Of a DNA stretch of 64,000 nucleotides, positions 4,931 through 32,547 are shown piece by piece. Origin of the DNA: an uncultured cyanobacterium (GTDB taxonomy: Bacteria; Cyanobacteriota; Cyanobacteriia; PCC-9006; JAAUQQ01); the NCBI GenBank assembly GCA_963718615.1, contig OY970368.1, positions 3,744,001 to 3,808,000 of the forward strand, given 5' to 3'. The notes under the pieces were generated by a model. The model was not told the origin of the DNA. It did no database searches and was given only the letters and a program-made list of their open reading frames with translations. A program made the position numbers and the translations under genes. Numbering within the stretch: the first letter of the stretch is position 1; each line of letters begins with the position of its first letter.

Positions 4931-5227
4931 CTACTGCTCTATGAACAAAGCCTCTAAATCTCGATACCCACTCACAACCCGCAACACCTCAATTCCATCT
5001 ACCAAAGGGACATAAAAAACAATGTAGTCCGCAACCACAAATCCCCGCAAACCTTGTCTCAACCGCTCATACCGCTTCCCCATATTTGGAAATTGGGCAA
5101 CTAGCCTACACTTCTTGCGAATCACATCGAACAACTCACTCGCAGCATCAGGATTCTCCATCGCGATAGAATCACACACAGTCGTCAAATCCTGTACAGC
5201 CAGTGGCGAGAAACGATAGATGCCCAT
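4931..5227 (-). CDS. ParE/RelE family toxin
   Basis: SPLAVQDL...FPNMG...LRGF...YIVFY...IEVLRVVSGYRDL. Confidence 0.88.
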   Translation of the reverse strand: MGIYRFSPLAVQDLTTVCDSIAMENPDAASELFDVIRKKCRLVAQFPNMGKRYERLRQGLRGFVVADYIVFYVPLVDGIEVLRVVSGYRDLEALFIEQ

Positions 5228-21828: not shown

Positions 21829-24800
21829 ATGGTCGGTAATGTCGGGAAATCATGGCTGCGGGCTAAAATGCCTTTGTCTGTAGGCTTAGGGCTAGCAGCA
21901 ACGTTGCTGGAAGGGCAGATTGGATTCGCTCAGGTTCAAAGCGACGGCTCCCTAGGGACGTTGGTTAATAATTCACTCACGGAGGCTTGCTTGGGGGTCT
22001 GTACGGTCACGGGGGGGGCTAATCCTCAAAATGGACCCAACCTCTTCCAGAGTTTTCGACAGTTTTCATTGGCTGGGGGTGATACGACGCAGTTTGTGGT
22101 CGAGCCCACAACGCAAAATCTGCTGGTGCGGGTAACGGGCCTTGGGGCTGATTTTGTTTCTAATATCAATGGCACGATCCAGGCGGTAGACGGTGGGTTG
22201 ATGCAAAGCCAACCGGTGAATTTATTTTTTATCAATCCTAATGGCATCGTGTTTGGACCGGCCTCAAAGTTGGAGATGGGAGGCTCGGTTTTAGCTACAA
22301 CGGCGGAGCGAATGCAGTTTGCGGATGGGGCGGTGTTTTCGGCAGGGCAGGTGGCCCAGGGAGCGCCGCTGTTGACGGTGAGTTCGCCGATGGGATTACA
22401 GATGGGGGCGCAAGCGGGGGATGTGCGGCTGGAGGCGGTGGATTGGTTGGGGGGCGATCGCAATCTAGTCGGGTTCACGTACAAAAACCTGGCCTTGGTC
22501 GGTGGCAAGGTGGATATCGAGAATGGACAGATTTGGGGGTTGGGTGGAGAGGTGGCGATCGCGGCGATCGCCCCCTTCGGCAACGTCAACCTGGACCTCG
22601 ACGGTAGACTGTCTCTCCCAGATAGCGCCCAACGTAGCAATGTCGCCATCCAGAACTCCCGAATCATCCTCCTTGGGGATGGGGAAAGAGACTTGGAGGT
22701 AACCGCTCAACGCATTGATCTCAATGGCGTAACTTTCATCACAGGCCGCTTTTCAGGCATTGCAGTCCCTGAGAATCCGCTGGATGCGATTCGGCTGGAT
22801 GCGTCAGAGGCGATCGTCCTAGTTGCCAATTCTGTGGTGAGCGATACGACCTTAGAAGGCAATGCCCCCTCGGGAGGAATCCGAGTGATAACAGGCTTTT
22901 TGGACCTGCAGGGGGGTAGTCAAATCTTGACGAGTAATGTGAGTTCGGGCCAGCCTGGTGAAATCAGAATTACAGCCACGGAAGGGGTGCGGCTGCAAGG
23001 GCTTAGGGCAGATGGGCTGACATCCAGTAGCATTAGAAGCCTCTTTTCAGGCGCTGGCGGCAAATCTAGCAATATTGTGATTGGAACCTCCAAGTTGGAA
23101 GTTTTGGAGGGTGCCCAATTTTTTACACAGACGACGGGTGCAGGAGATGCGGGGGATATTCAAATTACGGCGAGTGATTCGATTGTGTTGCAGGGGCAGG
23201 GACGTGCCAATCTTCCCACCAGTATTGGCAGCCAAGTGGGTCGTGATGCGGAGGGGAACGGCGGCAATCTCAGCTTCAACACTGCAAGCCTAGAAGTCCT
23301 AGATGGGGCTCAGATTGGGTCACTGCTCTTTGGCAAAGGCCAGGCTGGAGATGTTGAAATCACCGCCGATCGCATTCTTGTACAAGGTGAAGCGTTGGAT
23401 GGGACTAGCGCCAGCTCGATTAGCACCGCCATCCAGCCCAGCGGCCAGGGGACCGGAAGCGATGTGCGTATCCGCACAGCCGTGCTGGAATTGCTGGATG
23501 GCGGGCAAATTTCGGCCTCTACGATTGGCATTGGCAATGCCGGGGCGGTGAACATTCGGGCGAGCAATTCCGTTCGTTTGCAGGGTGAGCTACTGGATGG
23601 TAGTAGCAACAGTGGGATTGGCAGCGATGTCCAAGTGGGCGCACAGGGGGCAGGGGGCGAAGTCTTGATCGAAACCCCACTGCTAGAGGTGTTGGATGGG
23701 GCTACCATTTCCGCTTCGACTTTTGGAGTAGGTAATGCAGGCCAGCTTAGAATTCGGACCGGTGCCTCTGCCGGTTTTGACCAAGCGGGGCGGGTTCGCG
23801 TCCAGGGAAGGAATCGGGCGAATGACAATTCCAGCCTGATTTCCAGTAGCGTTCAAGAAGCGGGGCGGGGGACAGGGGGAGAAGTAGAGATTGATACCGG
23901 GGTGCTAGAGGTCTTGGAGGGAGGACAAATTTCTGCATTTACCCAAGGGATTGGTGATGCGGGGAATTTGAAGATTCGGGCGAGCGATCGCATCCTCCTC
24001 CAGGGCAGCCGCGATCTAGCAACCCAGCAAACCACGATTTCAGCAAACGTCTCATCCGAGGCCCAAGGCAATGGGGGAAGCTTGCAGATCGATACCTCAA
24101 TTCTTGAGGTACTCGACGGTGGCCAGATCGGAGCAATCACCTTTGGCCAAGGCAATGCAGGCAATATCGAGATTACCGCTCGCAAGTCTGCGCGATTTGA
24201 TGGGATTAGCTTCGATGGATTTCCCAGCGGGGCCTTTAGTTCTGTCGAAGAAGCTGCGACAGGTCAGGGCGGAGATCTCGTTGTGGAAACACCAGTTTTG
24301 GAAGTGCTAACGGGTGCCGCATTGGGCGTGAGTACCTTTGGCCAGGGGGATGCGGGGACGATGCGGCTGAATGTCAGTGAGCGGATTTTGATCGCTGGGA
24401 GCGATCGCCTGGGTTTACCCTCGATTGCTGGTGGGTCTAATTCGCGGTTATCGACTGGAAAAGCGGGCAGCCTCCAAATCACGACCCCCCAACTCACTGT
24501 AACCGATGGCGGGGTTGTTGAGACAAGCACCTCGAATAGTCAGCCGGGTGGCGAGATCATCCTCGCCCTGGGTCGCCTAGACCTACTGAATGGCGGCCAA
24601 ATCGCCAATAATTCAGATGGTGGTTCTGGCCCTGCTGGCAGCATCCAGATCACCGCCACAGAGGGAATTACCATCGCTGGGACGGATCCAACCTTTGCCA
24701 ACCGGGCGCAGCTCGATAGCCGTATCTCACTGTTCTACTTGCCTGAGAGCACGATCGCTGTCCGCTCCACCGGTACCGGAGCCGCTGGGGATTTGGCTCT

Positions 24801-25602
24801 GAATACTCCAATTCTCATCCTGGGCGATCGCGGCCAACTCATCGCCGATTCCAACACAACCACTGGTGGCAACCTCAACCTCAACCTCGACCAAGCCTTG
24901 ATGATGGAAAAGGATAGCTTAATCAGTGCAACAGCCGGTCGTGCCCAAGGTTCTGGTAACGGGGGGAACATTACAATCAATGCTCCCTTTGTACTAAGTT
25001 TCCCCAACAACAATAGCGATATCCTTGCTAATGCCTTTAGTGGCACAGGAGGCAACATTACTATCGACTCGGAAGCCATTCTTAACTTTCAGTTGCAAAG
25101 CGAACCGAACATTGAAGCCTTGAGACGTAATCTCACCAACGATATCAGCGCCAGCTCCCAACTGGGCAATAGTGGCCTGCTCAACCTTGCTGGACTCAAT
25201 GTTGATCCGAGCCAAGGAACATCCCAGATTCGCCTATCCCCTCCGCTCACCAGCACCGTTGATCGAACCTGTTCCAACCAAACCATAGCAAACAATCGTT
25301 TTGTCCTGACTGGACGTAGCGGCCTACCACTCAGTCCCGACGATCCCCCCTCTCCTCTCTCGACACAGGTGGGATGGGTTCCATTACCCGGTTCTTTTAG
25401 CGTAACTCCAGTCTCTTCCGTATTGCCAGTTCTCACATCAGGATCTCACCCCGATCGCACGTCTCCCGTTGAGGCCGATCGCTGGCAACAAAATGCCATG
25501 GGCGAGGTCGTTCTTATGGATCAAGAGACTAAACCACTACCCACTTCACAGGTTAGCTGTGGGTTGCTGACGAAAATTGATCAAGACCTTGATTCTCGCT
25601 GA
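21829..25602 (+). CDS. Filamentous hemagglutinin family (TpsA-like) exoprotein
   Basis: Signal peptide, TPS motifs NLFQSF, SNINGTI, NLFFINPNGIVFG; internal repeats LEVLDGGQISASTxGxGNAG; C-terminal FVLTGRSGLP. Confidence 0.88.
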   Translation: MVGNVGKSWLRAKMPLSVGLGLAATLLEGQIGFAQVQSDGSLGTLVNNSLTEACLGVCTVTGGANPQNGPNLFQSFRQFSLAGGDTTQFVVEPTTQNLLVRVTGLGADFVSNINGTIQAVDGGLMQSQPVNLFFINPNGIVFGPASKLEMGGSVLATTAERMQFADGAVFSAGQVAQGAPLLTVSSPMGLQMGAQAGDVRLEAVDWLGGDRNLVGFTYKNLALVGGKVDIENGQIWGLGGEVAIAAIAPFGNVNLDLDGRLSLPDSAQRSNVAIQNSRIILLGDGERDLEVTAQRIDLNGVTFITGRFSGIAVPENPLDAIRLDASEAIVLVANSVVSDTTLEGNAPSGGIRVITGFLDLQGGSQILTSNVSSGQPGEIRITATEGVRLQGLRADGLTSSSIRSLFSGAGGKSSNIVIGTSKLEVLEGAQFFTQTTGAGDAGDIQITASDSIVLQGQGRANLPTSIGSQVGRDAEGNGGNLSFNTASLEVLDGAQIGSLLFGKGQAGDVEITADRILVQGEALDGTSASSISTAIQPSGQGTGSDVRIRTAVLELLDGGQISASTIGIGNAGAVNIRASNSVRLQGELLDGSSNSGIGSDVQVGAQGAGGEVLIETPLLEVLDGATISASTFGVGNAGQLRIRTGASAGFDQAGRVRVQGRNRANDNSSLISSSVQEAGRGTGGEVEIDTGVLEVLEGGQISAFTQGIGDAGNLKIRASDRILLQGSRDLATQQTTISANVSSEAQGNGGSLQIDTSILEVLDGGQIGAITFGQGNAGNIEITARKSARFDGISFDGFPSGAFSSVEEAATGQGGDLVVETPVLEVLTGAALGVSTFGQGDAGTMRLNVSERILIAGSDRLGLPSIAGGSNSRLSTGKAGSLQITTPQLTVTDGGVVETSTSNSQPGGEIILALGRLDLLNGGQIANNSDGGSGPAGSIQITATEGITIAGTDPTFANRAQLDSRISLFYLPESTIAVRSTGTGAAGDLALNTPILILGDRGQLIADSNTTTGGNLNLNLDQALMMEKDSLISATAGRAQGSGNGGNITINAPFVLSFPNNNSDILANAFSGTGGNITIDSEAILNFQLQSEPNIEALRRNLTNDISASSQLGNSGLLNLAGLNVDPSQGTSQIRLSPPLTSTVDRTCSNQTIANNRFVLTGRSGLPLSPDDPPSPLSTQVGWVPLPGSFSVTPVSSVLPVLTSGSHPDRTSPVEADRWQQNAMGEVVLMDQETKPLPTSQVSCGLLTKIDQDLDSR

Positions 25603-26276: not shown

Positions 26277-26903
26277 CTATTGTTGACTGAGATAGGCGAT
26301 CGCCTCCCGAATCCAATCCTCCACATCAGCATTTTTTGCCAGACTAGTTTGCTGACCAACCGTAGCGATCGCCTCCATAATCTCTCGACTGCTATACCCC
26401 AACGCCAACAGCGTCATTTCCACATCCTCCTGAATCTCAGACACCGGCCCTGCCCCCGGAGACGTCAGCAACCCCACCGATTCTCGCCATTCCGCCAGTT
26501 TGGCCCGCAACTCTAGAGAAATTCGCTCAGCAGTCTTTTTGCCGACGCCGGGAGCTTGGGATAGAAGCCGTACATTATTGGAGACGATCGCCTGGACCAG
26601 CTCCTTCAATTCCAATGTGTTGAGCAGTGCAATCCCCGACTGCGCCCCAATGCCGCTAACGCTAATCAGTTGCCGAAACAAGTCACGCTCCGCGATCGAG
26701 CCAAAGCCATAGAGCGTCCACTGGTCTTCCCGCACCTGGAGGTGGATAAACAGTTGACACTCCTGCCCCGCAGCGGGAATCTCGGGCATGAGGCGCGGCA
26801 CAATTTGGATTTCGTAGCCGACCCCGCTGACATTGAGCAACAAAATAACGCGATTATTGAGGCGCTGAACGCCTGCGACGGTGCCTTGGAGAAAACCGAT
26901 CAT
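26277..26903 (-). CDS. ruvA: Holliday junction branch migration protein RuvA
   Basis: MIGFLQG, GVGYEI, VREDQWTLYGF, HhH motifs VSGIG and PGVGKKTAERI. Confidence 0.96.
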   Translation of the reverse strand: MIGFLQGTVAGVQRLNNRVILLLNVSGVGYEIQIVPRLMPEIPAAGQECQLFIHLQVREDQWTLYGFGSIAERDLFRQLISVSGIGAQSGIALLNTLELKELVQAIVSNNVRLLSQAPGVGKKTAERISLELRAKLAEWRESVGLLTSPGAGPVSEIQEDVEMTLLALGYSSREIMEAIATVGQQTSLAKNADVEDWIREAIAYLSQQ

Positions 26904-26983
26904 AGAAATGGAGAACGCAAAGGAATAGTAGAGCTCAAAGTCATGATTTAAAATTGCGGTATTGTTTGCGATTGCCCCTTCCC

Positions 26984-27370
26984 ATGACCCAAGTCAAAAT
27001 CTACGGGCTAAAAGCCCAGCTCAACCCCATTAAAGCACAGCTTTCTGAAATCATTCACGCCTGTGTCGTCACAGCGCTTCAGTACCCGTCGGATAAACGC
27101 GCCCATCGTTTCTTTCCCCTTGAATCTGAGGATTTTTTCTATCCGGCTGGGCGGAGCGATCGCTATACAATCCTAGAATTTAGCATGTTTGAAGGTCGCA
27201 CCACCGCCGCTAAAAAACAACTGATTCGACTCCTGTTTGAGCAAGTTCAATCCTTAGGAATTACACCCCAGGATTTAGAAATTACTATTTTTGAAACACC
27301 TCAGCACAACTGGGGCTTTCGAGGCTTACCTGGCGATGAGCATGCCTTGAATTACAAGGTCAATGTCTAG
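26984..27370 (+). CDS. Tautomerase superfamily protein lacking N-terminal Pro
   Basis: MTQVKIYG...YPSDKRAHRF...MFEGRT..AKKQLI...ETPQHNWGFRG, a beta-alpha-beta pattern. Confidence 0.8.
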   Translation: MTQVKIYGLKAQLNPIKAQLSEIIHACVVTALQYPSDKRAHRFFPLESEDFFYPAGRSDRYTILEFSMFEGRTTAAKKQLIRLLFEQVQSLGITPQDLEITIFETPQHNWGFRGLPGDEHALNYKVNV

Positions 27371-27505
27371 GTCAATCACTGGCGGACCGTGAAACAAAGC
27401 AGGGAAGCTGTAAAGAAATATTGCAGGTTTTCTAAAAAATGCCATTTTGGCATCTTCTTCCATAACCCTTGTCCTTCAATAGGGTAGACCCTGGAGGAGA
27501 AGCTC

Positions 27506-27976
27506 ATGCAGCCTAATCTACCGATCGCCCTCTTCGAAAAAGTTAAAGAGTTTTTGGTTCGTTTGGTCAAAGATCAAGCCTTTGTCACCCAGCTTCAAGG
27601 CACCCCCCCCGATACCGTTCAGCAAACCCTAGAATCCCTCGGCTACAGCTTCACCAAAGAGGAGCTAGAATCCGCCACAATTGAAATTCTAGACCTGAAG
27701 GAACGGGGCGAATTTCACGAGCTGACTAGCGAAGAATTGACCGGTGCCGTAGGGGGACTCCTCCTGCGTTATCCAATCATTCAGCCCATGTATGGTGTGA
27801 TTATTGATCCGCCCATTGGCCGACGGCCCAGACCTCGTCCCTGGAAACCGCCCATCGATCCGACACCGGCTCCAGTTCCCATCGACCCAATTGTCCAGCC
27901 CATGTACGGTGTCGTGATTGAGCCGCCCATTGATATTCAGCCCATGTATGGCGTGATTATCGATACCTCGTTTTAG
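27506..27976 (+). CDS. Nif11-type leader RiPP precursor (PlpA-like) with three XYG cores
   Basis: Leader KEFLVRLVKD..F...GYSFTKEELE...ELTSEELTGAVGG (double Gly); core has QPMYGV three times; GGAGGAG RBS. Confidence 0.92.
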   Translation: MQPNLPIALFEKVKEFLVRLVKDQAFVTQLQGTPPDTVQQTLESLGYSFTKEELESATIEILDLKERGEFHELTSEELTGAVGGLLLRYPIIQPMYGVIIDPPIGRRPRPRPWKPPIDPTPAPVPIDPIVQPMYGVVIEPPIDIQPMYGVIIDTSF

Positions 27977-28028
27977 TCACCGCTGCATCAACTGAATCCT
28001 TACAATTCCATCAATGGAGTAATGCGCC

Positions 28029-29300
28029 ATGGCCTATCGTCGCGTCAGCTATGCCGTTTGGGAGATTACGCTCAAATGCAACTTAGCCTGTAGCCATTGT
28101 GGTTCGCGAGCGGGTCAGGCGCGTCACGACGAACTCTCCACCGAAGAAGCCCTCGATCTGGTTCGTCAGATGGCGGAGGTGGGGATCAAAGAGGTGACAC
28201 TCATTGGCGGTGAGGCGTTTTTGCGATCGGACTGGTTGCAGATCGCCGAGGCAATCAACCAAGCGGGCATGCGCTGCACGATGACGACCGGTGGATTTGG
28301 CATTTCCCTGGACTTGGCCCGACGAATGAAGGCGGCGGGGATTGCCACCGTTTCTGTTTCCATTGATGGCTTAGCAACTACCCACGATCGCCTGCGGGGT
28401 CGTCCCGGCTCCTGGGATTCGGCCTTTCGCACAATGGGCCATTTGCGCGAAGTGGGCATTCCCTTTGGCTGCAATACCCAGCTCAATCGTTGGTCTGCTC
28501 CGGAGTTTCCCCGGATTTACGAATGCATCCGCGATGCCGGAGCTAGAGCTTGGCAAATTCAGCTCACGGTTCCCATGGGCAATGCGGCAGACAATGCAGA
28601 GATGCTTCTGCAACCGGCTGAATTACTAGAGCTCTATCCCATGATTGCCGAAGTGGCGCGGCGGTCCCAGACGGAGGGGGTTCAACTCCAACCTGGTAAT
28701 AACATTGGCTACTACGGTCCCTACGAACGGCTCCTGCGGGGGCGGGGCAAACCTGATGATTGGGTGTTTTGGCAGGGTTGTGCGGCGGGTCTAGCGACAC
28801 TGGGGATTGAGGCCGATGGCGCGATTAAGGGCTGTCCTTCGTTGCCGACAGCGGCCTATACAGGGGGGAACATTCGCGATCGCAATCTCCGCAGCATCAT
28901 CGAAGAAACCGAAGAACTCCGGTTCAATCTGGGTGCAGGCACCCCCGAGGGTACAGCTCATCTTTGGGGCTTTTGCCAAACCTGTGAATACGCCGAACTT
29001 TGCCGAGGCGGCTGCACCTGGACATCCCATGTCTTTTTCAATCGCCGGGGCAATAATCCCTACTGCCACCACCGGGCATTGGCCCAGGCAGAGCAGGGCC
29101 TCCGCGAACGGGTTGTACCCAAAACCATTGCGCCGGGATTGCCCTTTGATAATGGGGAGTTTGCCATGGTCGAAGAGCCCCTAGAGGCCCCTTGGCCGGA
29201 AGCCGATGAATTACATTTTACGAGCGATCGCATCCAGTGGCCAGCAGGCTGGTTTGTCGAGCCGAAGGTAGACCCGAAAGTGGAAGCGATCGCCCAATAA
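28029..29300 (+). CDS. Radical SAM/SPASM peptide maturase, splicease (PlpX-like)
   Basis: CNLACSHC rSAM motif; SPASM cysteines CAAG...KGCPSL...CQTC..AELCRGGC...NNPYC; adjacent to the Nif11 XYG precursor. Confidence 0.9.
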   Translation: MAYRRVSYAVWEITLKCNLACSHCGSRAGQARHDELSTEEALDLVRQMAEVGIKEVTLIGGEAFLRSDWLQIAEAINQAGMRCTMTTGGFGISLDLARRMKAAGIATVSVSIDGLATTHDRLRGRPGSWDSAFRTMGHLREVGIPFGCNTQLNRWSAPEFPRIYECIRDAGARAWQIQLTVPMGNAADNAEMLLQPAELLELYPMIAEVARRSQTEGVQLQPGNNIGYYGPYERLLRGRGKPDDWVFWQGCAAGLATLGIEADGAIKGCPSLPTAAYTGGNIRDRNLRSIIEETEELRFNLGAGTPEGTAHLWGFCQTCEYAELCRGGCTWTSHVFFNRRGNNPYCHHRALAQAEQGLRERVVPKTIAPGLPFDNGEFAMVEEPLEAPWPEADELHFTSDRIQWPAGWFVEPKVDPKVEAIAQ

Positions 29301-29326
29301 ACAGAATTTCATTAACGCCCAACGCC

Positions 29327-29530
29327 ATGGCTACTGAAGAACCAGCGAATTCCAATCCCCCACTTTCCAATCCCCCGATGGAACAGATCCCATTACTGCC
29401 TCGCTCTGCTTGGAACAGCGAGATCACTCGGCTGAAGGTGTTGTTCAAAGCGAAGCAGGCACTCGATCGCGAGGAGAAAGCCTTTCTGAAACGTGGCGAT
29501 CGCCCAGAGGCTCCTCCCGATCATCGATAA
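29327..29530 (+). CDS. Small splicease accessory protein (PlpY-like)
   Basis: 67 aa, 26 nt after the rSAM stop; LLPRSAW...LKVLFKAKQALD resembles my recollection of the PlpY C-terminal LPRxxW...LIKAKQSL segment. Confidence 0.75.
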   Translation: MATEEPANSNPPLSNPPMEQIPLLPRSAWNSEITRLKVLFKAKQALDREEKAFLKRGDRPEAPPDHR

Positions 29531-30371
29531 TGGGCACTAAATCATATCCTTCAGGCACCCATTGCCAAAGCGATCGCAGCTCATCGGAGGAGGGGCGATC
29601 GCCCAATCCCAACTGGGCCAAAATCACCTGAATAATCACCTGATTAAAATGACTCGGAAACCGGAATTGCTCTTGGGCATGATCTAAAAAGAACGTTTTA
29701 CAATAATGCTGTAGGCTCTTTGTAAGATGAGAAATTTCCCAAAGTAAGGGCTTCACCTCAGTCAAACGGTGAGCATGCTCCCGGAGTAAGACCTGAGCCG
29801 CATTCTGAAAATGCACCCCTTCATCCTGCACCAGATATTGCCCTACGCGCTGCACCGCAGCTCCAAAATGGCAGTAATATTCTCGCAAATCTCGCCGATA
29901 GGAATACACTGAGCTGATTTCATCAAACATCAACGTGACCAAGATCGTGAATTCATCTTCGAGGACCCGTTCAATGGGCTGGGTTTCATGGACCCGAGCA
30001 TCGAAACAGCGGTTCATTTCCGCAAACTCTACCCCTGCAATACAACGGTAAGTCCGGCGCAATGCCTCGTAGTGCTTTGATTCATCCTCAAGCCAGAGTT
30101 CTAACATCTCCAAAAACGATGCTGACATTTCTGTTTTTCTAGCCCAAATGTAATCATAGAGAGCCTTAGCATCCCCTTCCGAATAAACATCTCTTGCTAA
30201 TAGCAACCGAAAATTTTCTAGCAATTGAGGCGAGGCTTGGTCAAAATACTTCGATGCAACCTCATGATCTAAACGGATTACATGATCCAGACTCCATTGA
30301 TTTTGCTTGGGTTGAGTACCGTTTAATCGTGAGGAGGTTAACTGCATAAACTCACCTAAATCTAGCTCCAT
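29445..30371 (-). CDS. Ferritin-like four-helix diiron-carboxylate protein
   Basis: Ligand pattern E (YSE) ... DESKH ... E (FDE) ... DEGVH. Confidence 0.72.
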   Translation of the reverse strand: MELDLGEFMQLTSSRLNGTQPKQNQWSLDHVIRLDHEVASKYFDQASPQLLENFRLLLARDVYSEGDAKALYDYIWARKTEMSASFLEMLELWLEDESKHYEALRRTYRCIAGVEFAEMNRCFDARVHETQPIERVLEDEFTILVTLMFDEISSVYSYRRDLREYYCHFGAAVQRVGQYLVQDEGVHFQNAAQVLLREHAHRLTEVKPLLWEISHLTKSLQHYCKTFFLDHAQEQFRFPSHFNQVIIQVILAQLGLGDRPSSDELRSLWQWVPEGYDLVPIIDDREEPLGDRHVSERLSPRDRVPASL

Positions 30372-30388: not shown

Positions 30389-31738
30389 CTAATCAGAATC
30401 TGGAATATACAATCCGTCATTGGAGACGATGTGCGGAATAATTAAACAGTGTCGTCCCGTAATCCGAGAAGTATCACCTCTCAAAACAATGCCTGCTGGT
30501 TCATCATTAATCACCCAACTGCCCACCATGTAGTGATAGCCCCATGCCTGAGGCAATTCGATATATTCCTGATAAATATAGCCCTCCCCACCATAGCCCA
30601 TGGCATCGCGTTTCTCTAGGGCTCCAACCCCTGCTTCAATGGAAATTCCTACCCCTTCTAGTCCTAGTAAGGGCTTTTTCACATGCACATCGAGCATGAG
30701 TTTCGTCGCTTCCGGGGAAATATCACGGTCTAAGTAGGTTTCTAGAAGATAGGGGCGATAGTCCGAGTCTTTGAAGCAATCCCACATCAACGCCATCGCA
30801 CCTTTATTCGATAATATCTGTTTCCAAAGGGGCTCTAAAACCTTCATATCCCCCACTTCCAAGCGCTTTGCTAGAGCTTCCGTACAACCGGCATTGGCGA
30901 TATCATTTTGGATATCTGACCAGTCATACATCTTCCAGAGGACGGGGATGCGATCGTTCACATGATCCACAAAATAGCCCTCTTCATCCAATCCCAAACC
31001 CCGCTGAACGAGATCACCCTTATCATCTTCTAAGTCCTGCAAATAAACCACTTGTGTATAGATTTCTGAATCCACATCATCTTGCAGAATCTGAATCAAC
31101 TGCATCGCCATTTCTAGATCTTCTTCCAGATTTTCATCCACTAGAAATGAGATGCCGGTTTTCTTCAAATCATAGGATTCCGCAATCCAGCGCCATTGCC
31201 CTGCGGTCAGATCCCAAAATTCGTTAAACTGGCTAGCATCGCTAGGTAAGGGGTGCAAACCCTTTTGATAATTACGACGATAATCGACAAACCAATTCCA
31301 CTGATAGATGGTTTCAGCTCCCAGTAACGGCGTCTCACCATTGATTTCAATCAGCTTGATCGTTCCAGCTTCCGTTACAACCAGATCGAACCGGGTCATC
31401 AAAGTCAAATCTTCGACGGGTTCAACGCGATCCCAACTGTTTTTGATTGCGCTCCAATATTCAGGCCGAATCTTGAGCTGAGCCAAACGCTGATCAACAG
31501 AACCGGCCTCTTCTTCCGTAAAAAACCAATCCAAAAATGCAATGCACATTTCCCAAAGCTTTTCAGTGGCTTGGGCGATCGCCGTTTCCTCCCGAGTATC
31601 AAACTGAATCACAAAGGGCTGGGGTAAAGCCTCAACCCAATACTTTTGCTGAGCATCACTCAAGACATCGGCCTGATAAGCATTGTCCCGAATATGCTGT
31701 TTCCAGTTTTGCCGCCGCTGAATTTTTAGGGCTCTCAT
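30389..31738 (-). CDS. Glutathionylspermidine synthase family ATP-grasp protein (YgiC/YjfC-like)
   Basis: YWVE, TRFDL, KLIEINGETP, WKMYDW, EPLWKQILSNKG, KKPLLGLEG, YIYQEY, VGSW, LRGD..RITG. Confidence 0.88.
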   Translation of the reverse strand: MRALKIQRRQNWKQHIRDNAYQADVLSDAQQKYWVEALPQPFVIQFDTREETAIAQATEKLWEMCIAFLDWFFTEEEAGSVDQRLAQLKIRPEYWSAIKNSWDRVEPVEDLTLMTRFDLVVTEAGTIKLIEINGETPLLGAETIYQWNWFVDYRRNYQKGLHPLPSDASQFNEFWDLTAGQWRWIAESYDLKKTGISFLVDENLEEDLEMAMQLIQILQDDVDSEIYTQVVYLQDLEDDKGDLVQRGLGLDEEGYFVDHVNDRIPVLWKMYDWSDIQNDIANAGCTEALAKRLEVGDMKVLEPLWKQILSNKGAMALMWDCFKDSDYRPYLLETYLDRDISPEATKLMLDVHVKKPLLGLEGVGISIEAGVGALEKRDAMGYGGEGYIYQEYIELPQAWGYHYMVGSWVINDEPAGIVLRGDTSRITGRHCLIIPHIVSNDGLYIPDSD

Positions 31739-31743
31739 GCTGC

Positions 31744-32475
31744 TTATTTGCCCCCGCTGCCAGTGCTTTTATAGGTGGAGCCAAATCCCTGGCTACTGCG
31801 TCCTGAGATGGTTCCCCGAGCCGCAGTGCCCGTCGGACGTGGGGGGGCAAGCACGGTGGTGTGACGCGGTGCCGTCACTCGGCCTGGGGTGGTTTTTGAG
31901 ACCGTCTGGCCATGGGGCGTAACGACTTCGCCTGGGGTTGAACTGGCATAAACCGGGCGCGTCTCATAGACTCGGTGTTGGCTGCCCCCATAGTTGACGT
32001 AGACATAGCTGGGGGAGTGGTAGGGATAGAAATAGGTGCCCCCATATACCGGACGATAGCCTGAGCTAGAGCCGGTCGTTACCGATTCGCACTGCACGCC
32101 TTCGGCACGGCAATCTTGTTCTGTGCCATAGACAGGGGCTGTGCGTTCGTGCTCCTGCTGGGCTGCTAGCATTTGCGGGGCGCAGTCCTCAGCCTTCATG
32201 GTCGGCGGCGTGGGGGATTGCTTGAGGTCGCCTTTTTTCTGCGCTGCTAAGAGAACCTGATATTCTGCCTGTTGTTTTTTGACATCGGCTTCGCATTGCG
32301 GGGTGTTTTCGTAAAAGACGGCATCAACTTTTTCGTTGGCGCTTGGGCTGGGGCTGGAACCACAACTGGTTAACAGCAAGGCGGCGATCGCGGCGATGGC
32401 GATCGTCTGCTGGACGCGTTGCCGCTGAATGATGCGGAGCTCCAGGTCTTGCATGGGGGGTCTAGGCTGAGTCAT
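31744..32475 (-). CDS. YgiB/YjfM (DUF1190)-like lipoprotein
   Basis: Lipobox LTSC; HERTAPVYGTEQDC...C matches the DUF1190 pattern; Gly/Ser tail QGFGS...GSGGK; 5 nt upstream of the ATP-grasp gene. Confidence 0.8.
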   Translation of the reverse strand: MTQPRPPMQDLELRIIQRQRVQQTIAIAAIAALLLTSCGSSPSPSANEKVDAVFYENTPQCEADVKKQQAEYQVLLAAQKKGDLKQSPTPPTMKAEDCAPQMLAAQQEHERTAPVYGTEQDCRAEGVQCESVTTGSSSGYRPVYGGTYFYPYHSPSYVYVNYGGSQHRVYETRPVYASSTPGEVVTPHGQTVSKTTPGRVTAPRHTTVLAPPRPTGTAARGTISGRSSQGFGSTYKSTGSGGK

Positions 32476-32547
32476 TCCGGGGAGCAAGAAAGCAGTACAT
32501 GCTGGTTTATCATTCCCACTCTAGTGAAATTACGCGACTGTGGTAGT

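Follow-up and report, generated by a model that had tools for sequence, protein, structure and literature searches.

A predicted type I spliceotide cassette, with a Nif11-type precursor, a radical SAM enzyme and a small helper protein, in an uncultured cyanobacterium

The 64,000-nt stretch of DNA analyzed here (called the window; GenBank assembly GCA_963718615.1, contig OY970368.1, positions 3,744,001 to 3,808,000 of the forward strand) belongs to an uncultured cyanobacterium and contains three adjacent genes, named A, X and Y, which very probably form a self-contained type I (ternary, cyanobacterial) spliceotide cassette. In systems of this kind, PlpX and other X proteins cut out a tyramine equivalent at XYG motifs (PMC11414181), the motif being defined in PMC10533398 and PMC9811515. 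Gene A codes for a precursor peptide, X for a radical S-adenosylmethionine (SAM) enzyme of the SPASM type that is predicted to be a tyramine splicease, and Y for a small predicted helper protein (Table 1). The genes lie on one strand, with intergenic gaps of 52 nt (A-X) and 26 nt (X-Y), and their reading frames are all open and full length. An earlier reading of the letters and their open reading frames (ORFs), the sequence-only reading, had placed a three-gene cluster at positions 27506 to 29530. This placement holds, with ORFs of 156, 423 and 67 amino acids, the last of which runs from its first ATG at 29327 to 29530 as proposed.

Table 1. Features of the spliceotide-type cassette in the window, with their positions and the basis of each assignment
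Feature	Position	Strand	Basis
A, precursor peptide gene, 156 aa	27506-27976	+	ORF list; Pfam Nif11
X, radical SAM/SPASM enzyme, predicted tyramine splicease, 423 aa	28029-29300	+	ORF list; TIGR04103, PF04055
Y, 67-aa predicted helper protein (PlpY-like activator)	29327-29530	+	ORF from first ATG
Shine-Dalgarno-like GGAGGAG, 6 nt 5' of the A start	27493-27499	+	read from sequence
GGAG before X	28016-28019	+	read from sequence
Predicted leader of A, residues 1-84, ending ...ELTGAVGG (double-glycine site)	27506-27757	+	split at GG
Predicted core of A, residues 85-156, 72 aa, 18 Pro, three QPMYGV(I/V)I(D/E) units	27758-27973	+	composition
Predicted splice site 1, M95-Y96-G97	27788-27796	+	translation; context fits family consensus
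Predicted splice site 2, M133-Y134-G135	27902-27910	+	translation
Predicted splice site 3, M147-Y148-G149	27944-27952	+	translation
Radical SAM cluster motif C17-x3-C21-x2-C24 (CX3CX2C) of X	28077-28100	+	invariant, 40 aligned homologues
SPASM-type cysteines C251, C269, C316, C319, C325, C329, C346 of X	28779-29069	+	invariant, 40 aligned homologues
Conserved segment of Y, residues 22-47 (PLLPRSAWNSEITRLKVLFKAKQALD)	29390-29467	+	alignment of 40 sequences

The family membership of X is clear from the NCBIfam scan, where the equivalog TIGR04103 ("nif11-class peptide radical SAM maturase 3") is the sole family whose own cut-off the protein passes (804.9 bits, E value 1.1e-242, cut-off 725), the match spanning profile positions 1 to 408 of 412. 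The second family, TIGR03913, yields 416.1 bits (E value 1.4e-124) and stays below its own cut-off of 591.75, which leaves X outside it, and the remaining radical SAM/SPASM maturase families (sactipeptide, SCIFF-type, PQQ/PqqE, SkfB, StsB and mycofactocin) score less than 165 bits. None of 14 control genomes has a protein scoring over the TIGR04103 cut-off, and X is the only copy in its own 6.1-Mb genome. The sequence-only reading had suggested comparing X with profiles of the nif11-class families and had named a grouping with epimerases or with cyclophane or thioether formers as the outcome that would speak against a splicease; this grouping did not occur, TIGR04103 being the best family and above its cut-off.

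X also matches the Radical_SAM domain (Pfam ID PF04055) with 89.7 bits. Its CX3CX2C motif and seven further cysteines are invariant, the latter with the spacing CX12GX4C...CX2CX5CX3C...C of a SPASM motif for an auxiliary cluster. The proposed radical SAM/SPASM gene is thereby recovered through PF04055 and the cysteines, with the Pfam SPASM model itself below its cut-off (see below). The closest PDB sequence is SkfB (E value 3.2e-21), and there is no splicease structure among the PDB sequences.

The leader of A matches the Pfam Nif11 family (Pfam ID PF07862) with 26.1 bits, above the gathering score of 23.8, and ends in a double glycine at residues 83 and 84, in agreement with the Nif11 leader ending in GG that had been recognized by eye. 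Also as first noticed, the translation carries MYG at residues 95, 133 and 147, giving three potential X-Y-G splice motifs in a core that is free of cysteine and in which the repeated units are spaced by Pro/Arg-rich stretches. The pattern is more than chance, since three MYG motifs did not arise in any of 100,000 shuffled versions of the core. Between the three 12-residue units, the DNA differs at synonymous codon positions with the peptide being preserved, and because their QPMYGV part differs by synonymous changes only, purifying selection is indicated. Type I systems have Nif11-type precursors according to two reviews (PMC9811515 and PMC10849128), and the natural sites of PlpXY are given as "MYG and LYG peptide sites" (PMC10533398).

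For Y, an alternative start at GTG 29237 would give a protein of 97 amino acids overlapping X; the ATG at 29327 is preferred because the Y homologues begin after the X stop codon. Y has no match among the Pfam and NCBIfam family models. The residues that are invariant in 40 Y sequences (L24, P25, R26, W29, K43, L46 and D47) fall within the consensus PLLPRSAWNSQL-YLK-LLKAKQALD, and the N- and C-termini are variable. The structure of the X+Y complex was modelled from alignments of 40 rows each and passes the controls, with a score of 0.87 versus 0.50 for the best control; 58 of 80 solved complexes attain this mark as well, as do 2 of 110 mismatched pairs. The contacts agree between runs by at least 90%, and the partner has a predicted local distance difference test value of at least 66. 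The modelled interface comprises residues 20 to 54 of Y, covering the conserved segment, and residues 229 to 258, 288 to 326 and 348 of X, which is the SPASM half of the enzyme. The model supports binding of Y to X, and a memorized complex is an improbable source of the result, since the PDB sequences include no splicease structure. Cyanobacterial X enzymes are described to need a small Y protein, an activator that binds to X in the form of a helix; the Y proteins are said not to be classical recognition elements, and PcpY was required in vitro (PMC11414181). The small gene beside X and its modelled binding fit this description, and an activating role of Y would follow by analogy. The idea that Y is a PqqD-like recognition element for peptides that are made by the ribosome and modified after translation (RiPPs) was considered and is unsupported by the Pfam and PDB sequence comparisons.

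A scan of a genome collection with one genome per prokaryotic species identified 426 stretches with relatives of X, and the best 80 of these were compared by running phmmer with the window proteins against the six-frame ORFs of each locus. X is 75 to 89% identical in these best 80 of 426 loci, whose record titles name cyanobacterial taxa in 78 cases and an "uncultured bacterium" in 2. A-like ORFs were found upstream of X in 77 loci, with 97 copies in total, all on the strand of X, and 15 of the 77 precursor-bearing loci have two to four precursors. A Y-like ORF lies directly downstream of X, on the same strand, in 79 of the 80. The loci that account for the misses are L025, a contig of only 1,425 bp; L012, whose sequence starts 318 bp ahead of X; and L083, in which the precursor is split. 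YG sites follow the leader in 96 of the 97 related precursors, with one site in 29, two in 44, three in 20 and four in 3. The residue before the tyrosine is leucine in 86 and methionine in 62 of the 189 sites (together 148), and the commonest contexts are QP(L/M)YGV(V/I). The family consensus around the site reads Q-P/A-L/M-Y-G-V-V/I, and the related leaders end in strings similar to that of A, ...EL(V/A)GA(V/F)GG.

The splicease-type function proposed in the sequence-only reading is thus supported by TIGR04103, the A-X-Y synteny, the L/M-Y-G sites and the Y gene, from which we infer the tyramine excision itself. Because the gene order A-X-Y, the L/M-Y-G sites and the small size of Y fit the published pathways (PMC11414181, PMC10533398 and PMC9811515), the locus is assigned to type I, and at the level of sequence it holds every feature of the ternary type.

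The genes next to the cassette are Uma2, RuvA and tautomerase-like genes upstream and, on the opposite strand downstream, a 308-aa ORF, a glutathionylspermidine-synthase-like gene and a DUF1190 gene. The last 86 bp of Y overlap the 3' end of the convergent 308-aa ORF. Each of these six genes is found in 0 of the 80 related loci and was rejected as a cluster member, and because none recurs, the unit is A-X-Y alone, set in changing neighborhoods. One gene resembling a tetratricopeptide repeat (TPR)/glycosyltransferase gene matches in 28 of the 80 loci, which was taken as generic TPR similarity and likewise rejected.

Although common, the cassette is patchily distributed. Of 401 genomes sampled evenly from the phylum, 22, this one included, score over the TIGR04103 cut-off; among 30 relatives, a match is present in 1 of the 7 that belong to the same family and in none of the 23 others. 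The genome at hand, complete in a single contig of 6.10 Mb, contains one TIGR04103 gene and a single match to the Nif11 leader. Several related sequences are broken. One locus has leader and core in separate ORFs (L083, positions 468 to 857), another has a leaderless core fragment at a contig edge (L014, positions 62 to 262), both with X intact, and an apparently decayed splicease gene (G400:C1:3140602-3141777) matches TIGR04103 with 773 bits and carries three in-frame stops (TGA, TAG and TAA). Relatives of X scoring 430 to 635 bits, below the TIGR04103 cut-off, occur in three families (f33, f35 and f38) of another, non-photosynthetic class of the same phylum; they could represent further types of splicease or related maturases.

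The sequence-only reading had noted that no leader peptidase or transporter is encoded in the cluster, which agrees with the identity of the six flanking genes. This is the rule for A-X-Y cassettes, as 1 of the 80 related loci has a C39 domain at a distance of up to 4 kb and 5 have an ABC-transporter-like ORF there. A double-glycine ending is typical of Nif11 leaders that are processed by C39 peptidases. The genome search for a C39 peptidase-ABC transporter, which had been recommended, yielded five Peptidase_C39 matches elsewhere in the genome. Four, near 0.19, 1.47, 2.22 and 5.19 Mb of the contig (G000:C1), are ABC transporters of 714 to 1087 amino acids that keep the Q...CG catalytic motif and are unlinked to the cluster, and the fifth is a 1037-aa HlyB-type protein without the motif; none of the five reaches the TIGR03796 cut-off. 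A separate observation concerns one of these C39-ABC transporters (L092, G000:C1:190000-196500), beside which a small ORF lies on the minus strand near locus position 4969. Its leader ends in ...ENAQGG and is followed by a Gly/Ser/Ala-rich core, and the small ORF is probably a double-glycine substrate of the adjoining transporter.

The closest described counterparts are PlpA1-3/PlpX/PlpY of Pleurocapsa sp. PCC 7319 and PcpA/PcpX/PcpY of Pleurocapsa sp. PCC 7327, which are likewise cyanobacterial and have a Nif11-type leader. These type I systems share with the locus the M-Y-G/L-Y-G core sites, a radical SAM/SPASM X protein and a small Y beside X, which is modelled here to bind X through a helix as in the Plp and Pcp systems. 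The locus and the prototypes alike have several sites per precursor, two in PcpA and three MYG here. Unlike in the Pleurocapsa prototypes, there is a single precursor gene, and its core consists of three QPMYGV(I/V)I(D/E) units with Pro/Arg-rich spacers. The lineage also differs, the nearest X among the best 80 loci, with 89% identity, being found in a "Synechococcales" metagenome-assembled genome.

The type II or binary systems RhaX-RhaA, RcsX-RcsA and RasX-RasA of Rheinheimera have the same predicted net reaction at XYG, with MYG being spliced in RcsA. Both protease inhibition and antiviral activity depend on their ketoamide: the spliced peptides inhibit elastase, chymotrypsin and cathepsin B, whereas the unspliced forms are described as inactive (PMC11626197). 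Binary systems outside cyanobacteria are reported to do without Y, a part of the leader taking over its role (PMC11414181). The Rheinheimera systems are gammaproteobacterial, with short Cys-containing cores in loci that hold multiple biosynthetic gene clusters, including graspetides, whereas the locus described here has a Y gene and a core without cysteine. Membership in the binary type was rejected on account of the conserved Y gene directly 3' of X. The GDL-motif maturases of TIGR03913, the second-best family for X, represent a related radical SAM/SPASM clade; X is far below their cut-off, and A has no GDL motif.

By analogy with these homologues, A would be translated as a 156-aa precursor, and X, active only with Y bound, would cut a tyramine equivalent (C8H9NO, 135.07 Da) out at Tyr96, Tyr134 and/or Tyr148 and rejoin the backbone. 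The leader would then probably be cleaved after Gly84 by one of the unlinked C39-peptidase ABC exporters, releasing a proline-rich peptide of about 7.7 kDa (calculated monoisotopic mass with three splices, 7727.24 Da) with up to three ketoamide warheads, whose likely activity would be the inhibition of serine or cysteine proteases. For the core without splicing, the monoisotopic mass is calculated as 8132.44 Da, and one or two splices would lower it to 7997.37 or 7862.31 Da. The number of spliced sites may be less than three, because published spliceases do not modify every YG. A more specific picture, which we put forward tentatively and hold to be rather doubtful, is that the product is one long peptide of 72 residues with three Met-derived ketoamides on rigid Pro/Arg-rich linkers, which would mature in trans through one of the four unlinked C39-ABC exporters and act as a multivalent protease inhibitor. 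If true, it would differ from a small single-warhead peptide, and type I spliceotides would usually occur in nature with multi-site cores, as at least two YG sites are present in 67 of the 97 related precursors.

A number of points weigh against the assignment to type I and the product derived from it. The Pfam SPASM model scores 17.1 bits on X, below its cut-off of 21.5, and the NCBIfam leader model TIGR03798 scores 28.9 bits on A, just below 32.3. TIGR04103 is presumed to be the family containing PlpX and PcpX, and neither "TIGR04103" nor "rSAM_nif11_3" is named in any of the open papers searched. The tag peptides of PlpA2 and PlpA3, as printed in PMC10533398, gave 0 matches in the ORFs of the 80 loci. 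The characterized Pleurocapsa prototypes are outside the comparison set, and the likeness to them is judged by the NCBIfam model and the architecture. Y proteins are published as distantly similar to PqqD, which the sequence methods do not reproduce here: the PqqD model matches 0 of 40 Y sequences at E values up to 5, and the Y profile finds nothing below an E value of 0.19 and no PqqD among the PDB sequences. In RcsA, the DYG site escaped modification (PMC11626197), and spliceases may thus skip YG sites. Leader cleavage and export of A are assumptions, because no native mature spliceotide was known by 2022, the review of that year stating that none had been isolated from native hosts (PMC9811515). 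No RNA sequencing run containing the stretch is listed, and the best DNA runs contain 0.30 and 0.27 of the sampled words.

These points have to be set beside three other explanations, the least probable of which concerns the chemistry. X could act on the Tyr-Gly units by another radical SAM chemistry, for example cross-linking (C-C or C-S), epimerization or hydroxylation, without forming a ketoamide. SPASM enzymes as a class perform many chemistries, the splice product is predicted here by homology, and X also matches other radical SAM/SPASM maturase families (TIGR03913 with 416 bits; SkfB, StsB, PqqE and mycofactocin below 165). Only TIGR04103 passes its curated cut-off, however, and thioether formation is excluded because the core of A has no cysteine. 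The conserved element is moreover the exact L/M-Y-G context reported as the splice site (PMC10533398), and the Y partner is specific to ternary splicease systems (PMC11414181), so that we consider such an alternative chemistry highly improbable. It is somewhat less remote, though still improbable, that the cassette, though intact, has fallen silent or is decaying, being patchily inherited or horizontally acquired, and gives no natural product. The scattered occurrence described above, the lack of any of the six flanking genes in all 80 loci and the copy with three in-frame stops in G400 would fit this view, as would the promoter search: a consensus scan of positions 26900 to 29900 found no sigma-70-like promoter on the plus strand, and the promoter/terminator scan gave no plus-strand site and a result not above shuffles, such a consensus scan being weak evidence for cyanobacteria. 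Against decay, the catalytic cysteines and the invariant Y residues are kept in full-length, open ORFs, the synonymous-only changes in the QPMYGV repeats indicate purifying selection, and Shine-Dalgarno-like sequences precede A and X.

The form of the product leaves more room for an alternative, which we consider unlikely. Instead of a free exported core, the product might be the full, leader-bearing 17.5-kDa protein acting inside the cell, or the core might be cut between the repeats into short ketoamide peptides. The absence of a peptidase or exporter from the cassette, with a C39 domain close by in a single related locus, is consistent with this, as are the still missing native spliceotides in the review of 2022 (PMC9811515) and the finding that PlpXY works independently of the leader and also on whole proteins (PMC11414181 and PMC10533398). 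What favors the free exported core is the double glycine at the end of the leader of A, as expected for processing by a C39 peptidase, for which four C39-ABC transporters with the Q...CG motif are present in the genome. The processing rule is established, and the double glycine to which it applies is conserved in the related leaders. A conserved second cleavage motif between the repeats was not noticed, no search having been aimed at one.

As a type I cassette, the locus is an intact, uncharacterized and ordinary member of its family. The enzyme class, the helper, the motif and the bioactivity of the products have already been published, and the locus adds a precursor sequence rather than a new principle. 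The spliceotide study of 2022 tested 27 splicease-substrate pairs (count taken from PMC10849128), one of which might be this pair or a near relative. The genome provides a clean case, with one precursor, one splicease and four candidate leader peptidases/exporters on a complete single contig, suited to the open question of the form and release of the native mature type I spliceotide. The three near-identical MYG units in one core are furthermore a possible natural test of the efficiency of multi-site splicing.

Some neighboring genes of the window deserve mention in their own right. The 308-aa ORF (29445 to 30371, minus strand) has no Pfam or NCBIfam match even at E values up to 1. It carries two E-x-x-H motifs (WLEDESKHY and VQDEGVHF), and its nearest ESM-Atlas clusters are acyl-ACP desaturase or AurF-like diiron proteins (score 0.94), which can be taken as a lead only. 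The ORF follows, on the same strand, the glutathionylspermidine-synthase-like gene (30389 to 31738, minus strand; Pfam ID PF03738, 211.6 bits) and the DUF1190 gene (31744 to 32487, minus strand), a pairing that resembles E. coli ygiB-ygiC. This group of three genes lies beside the spliceotide cassette in 0 of the 80 loci, and the same is true of the tautomerase-superfamily gene (26954 to 27370, plus strand; Pfam ID PF14552, 81.3 bits), which lies 135 bp upstream of A. Further upstream (21829 to 25602, plus strand), a repeat-rich protein of 1257 amino acids has an N-terminal secretion domain (Pfam ID PF05860, 122.1 bits) of the two-partner-secretion (TPS) type and would be a filamentous-haemagglutinin-like exoprotein of a two-partner-secretion system.

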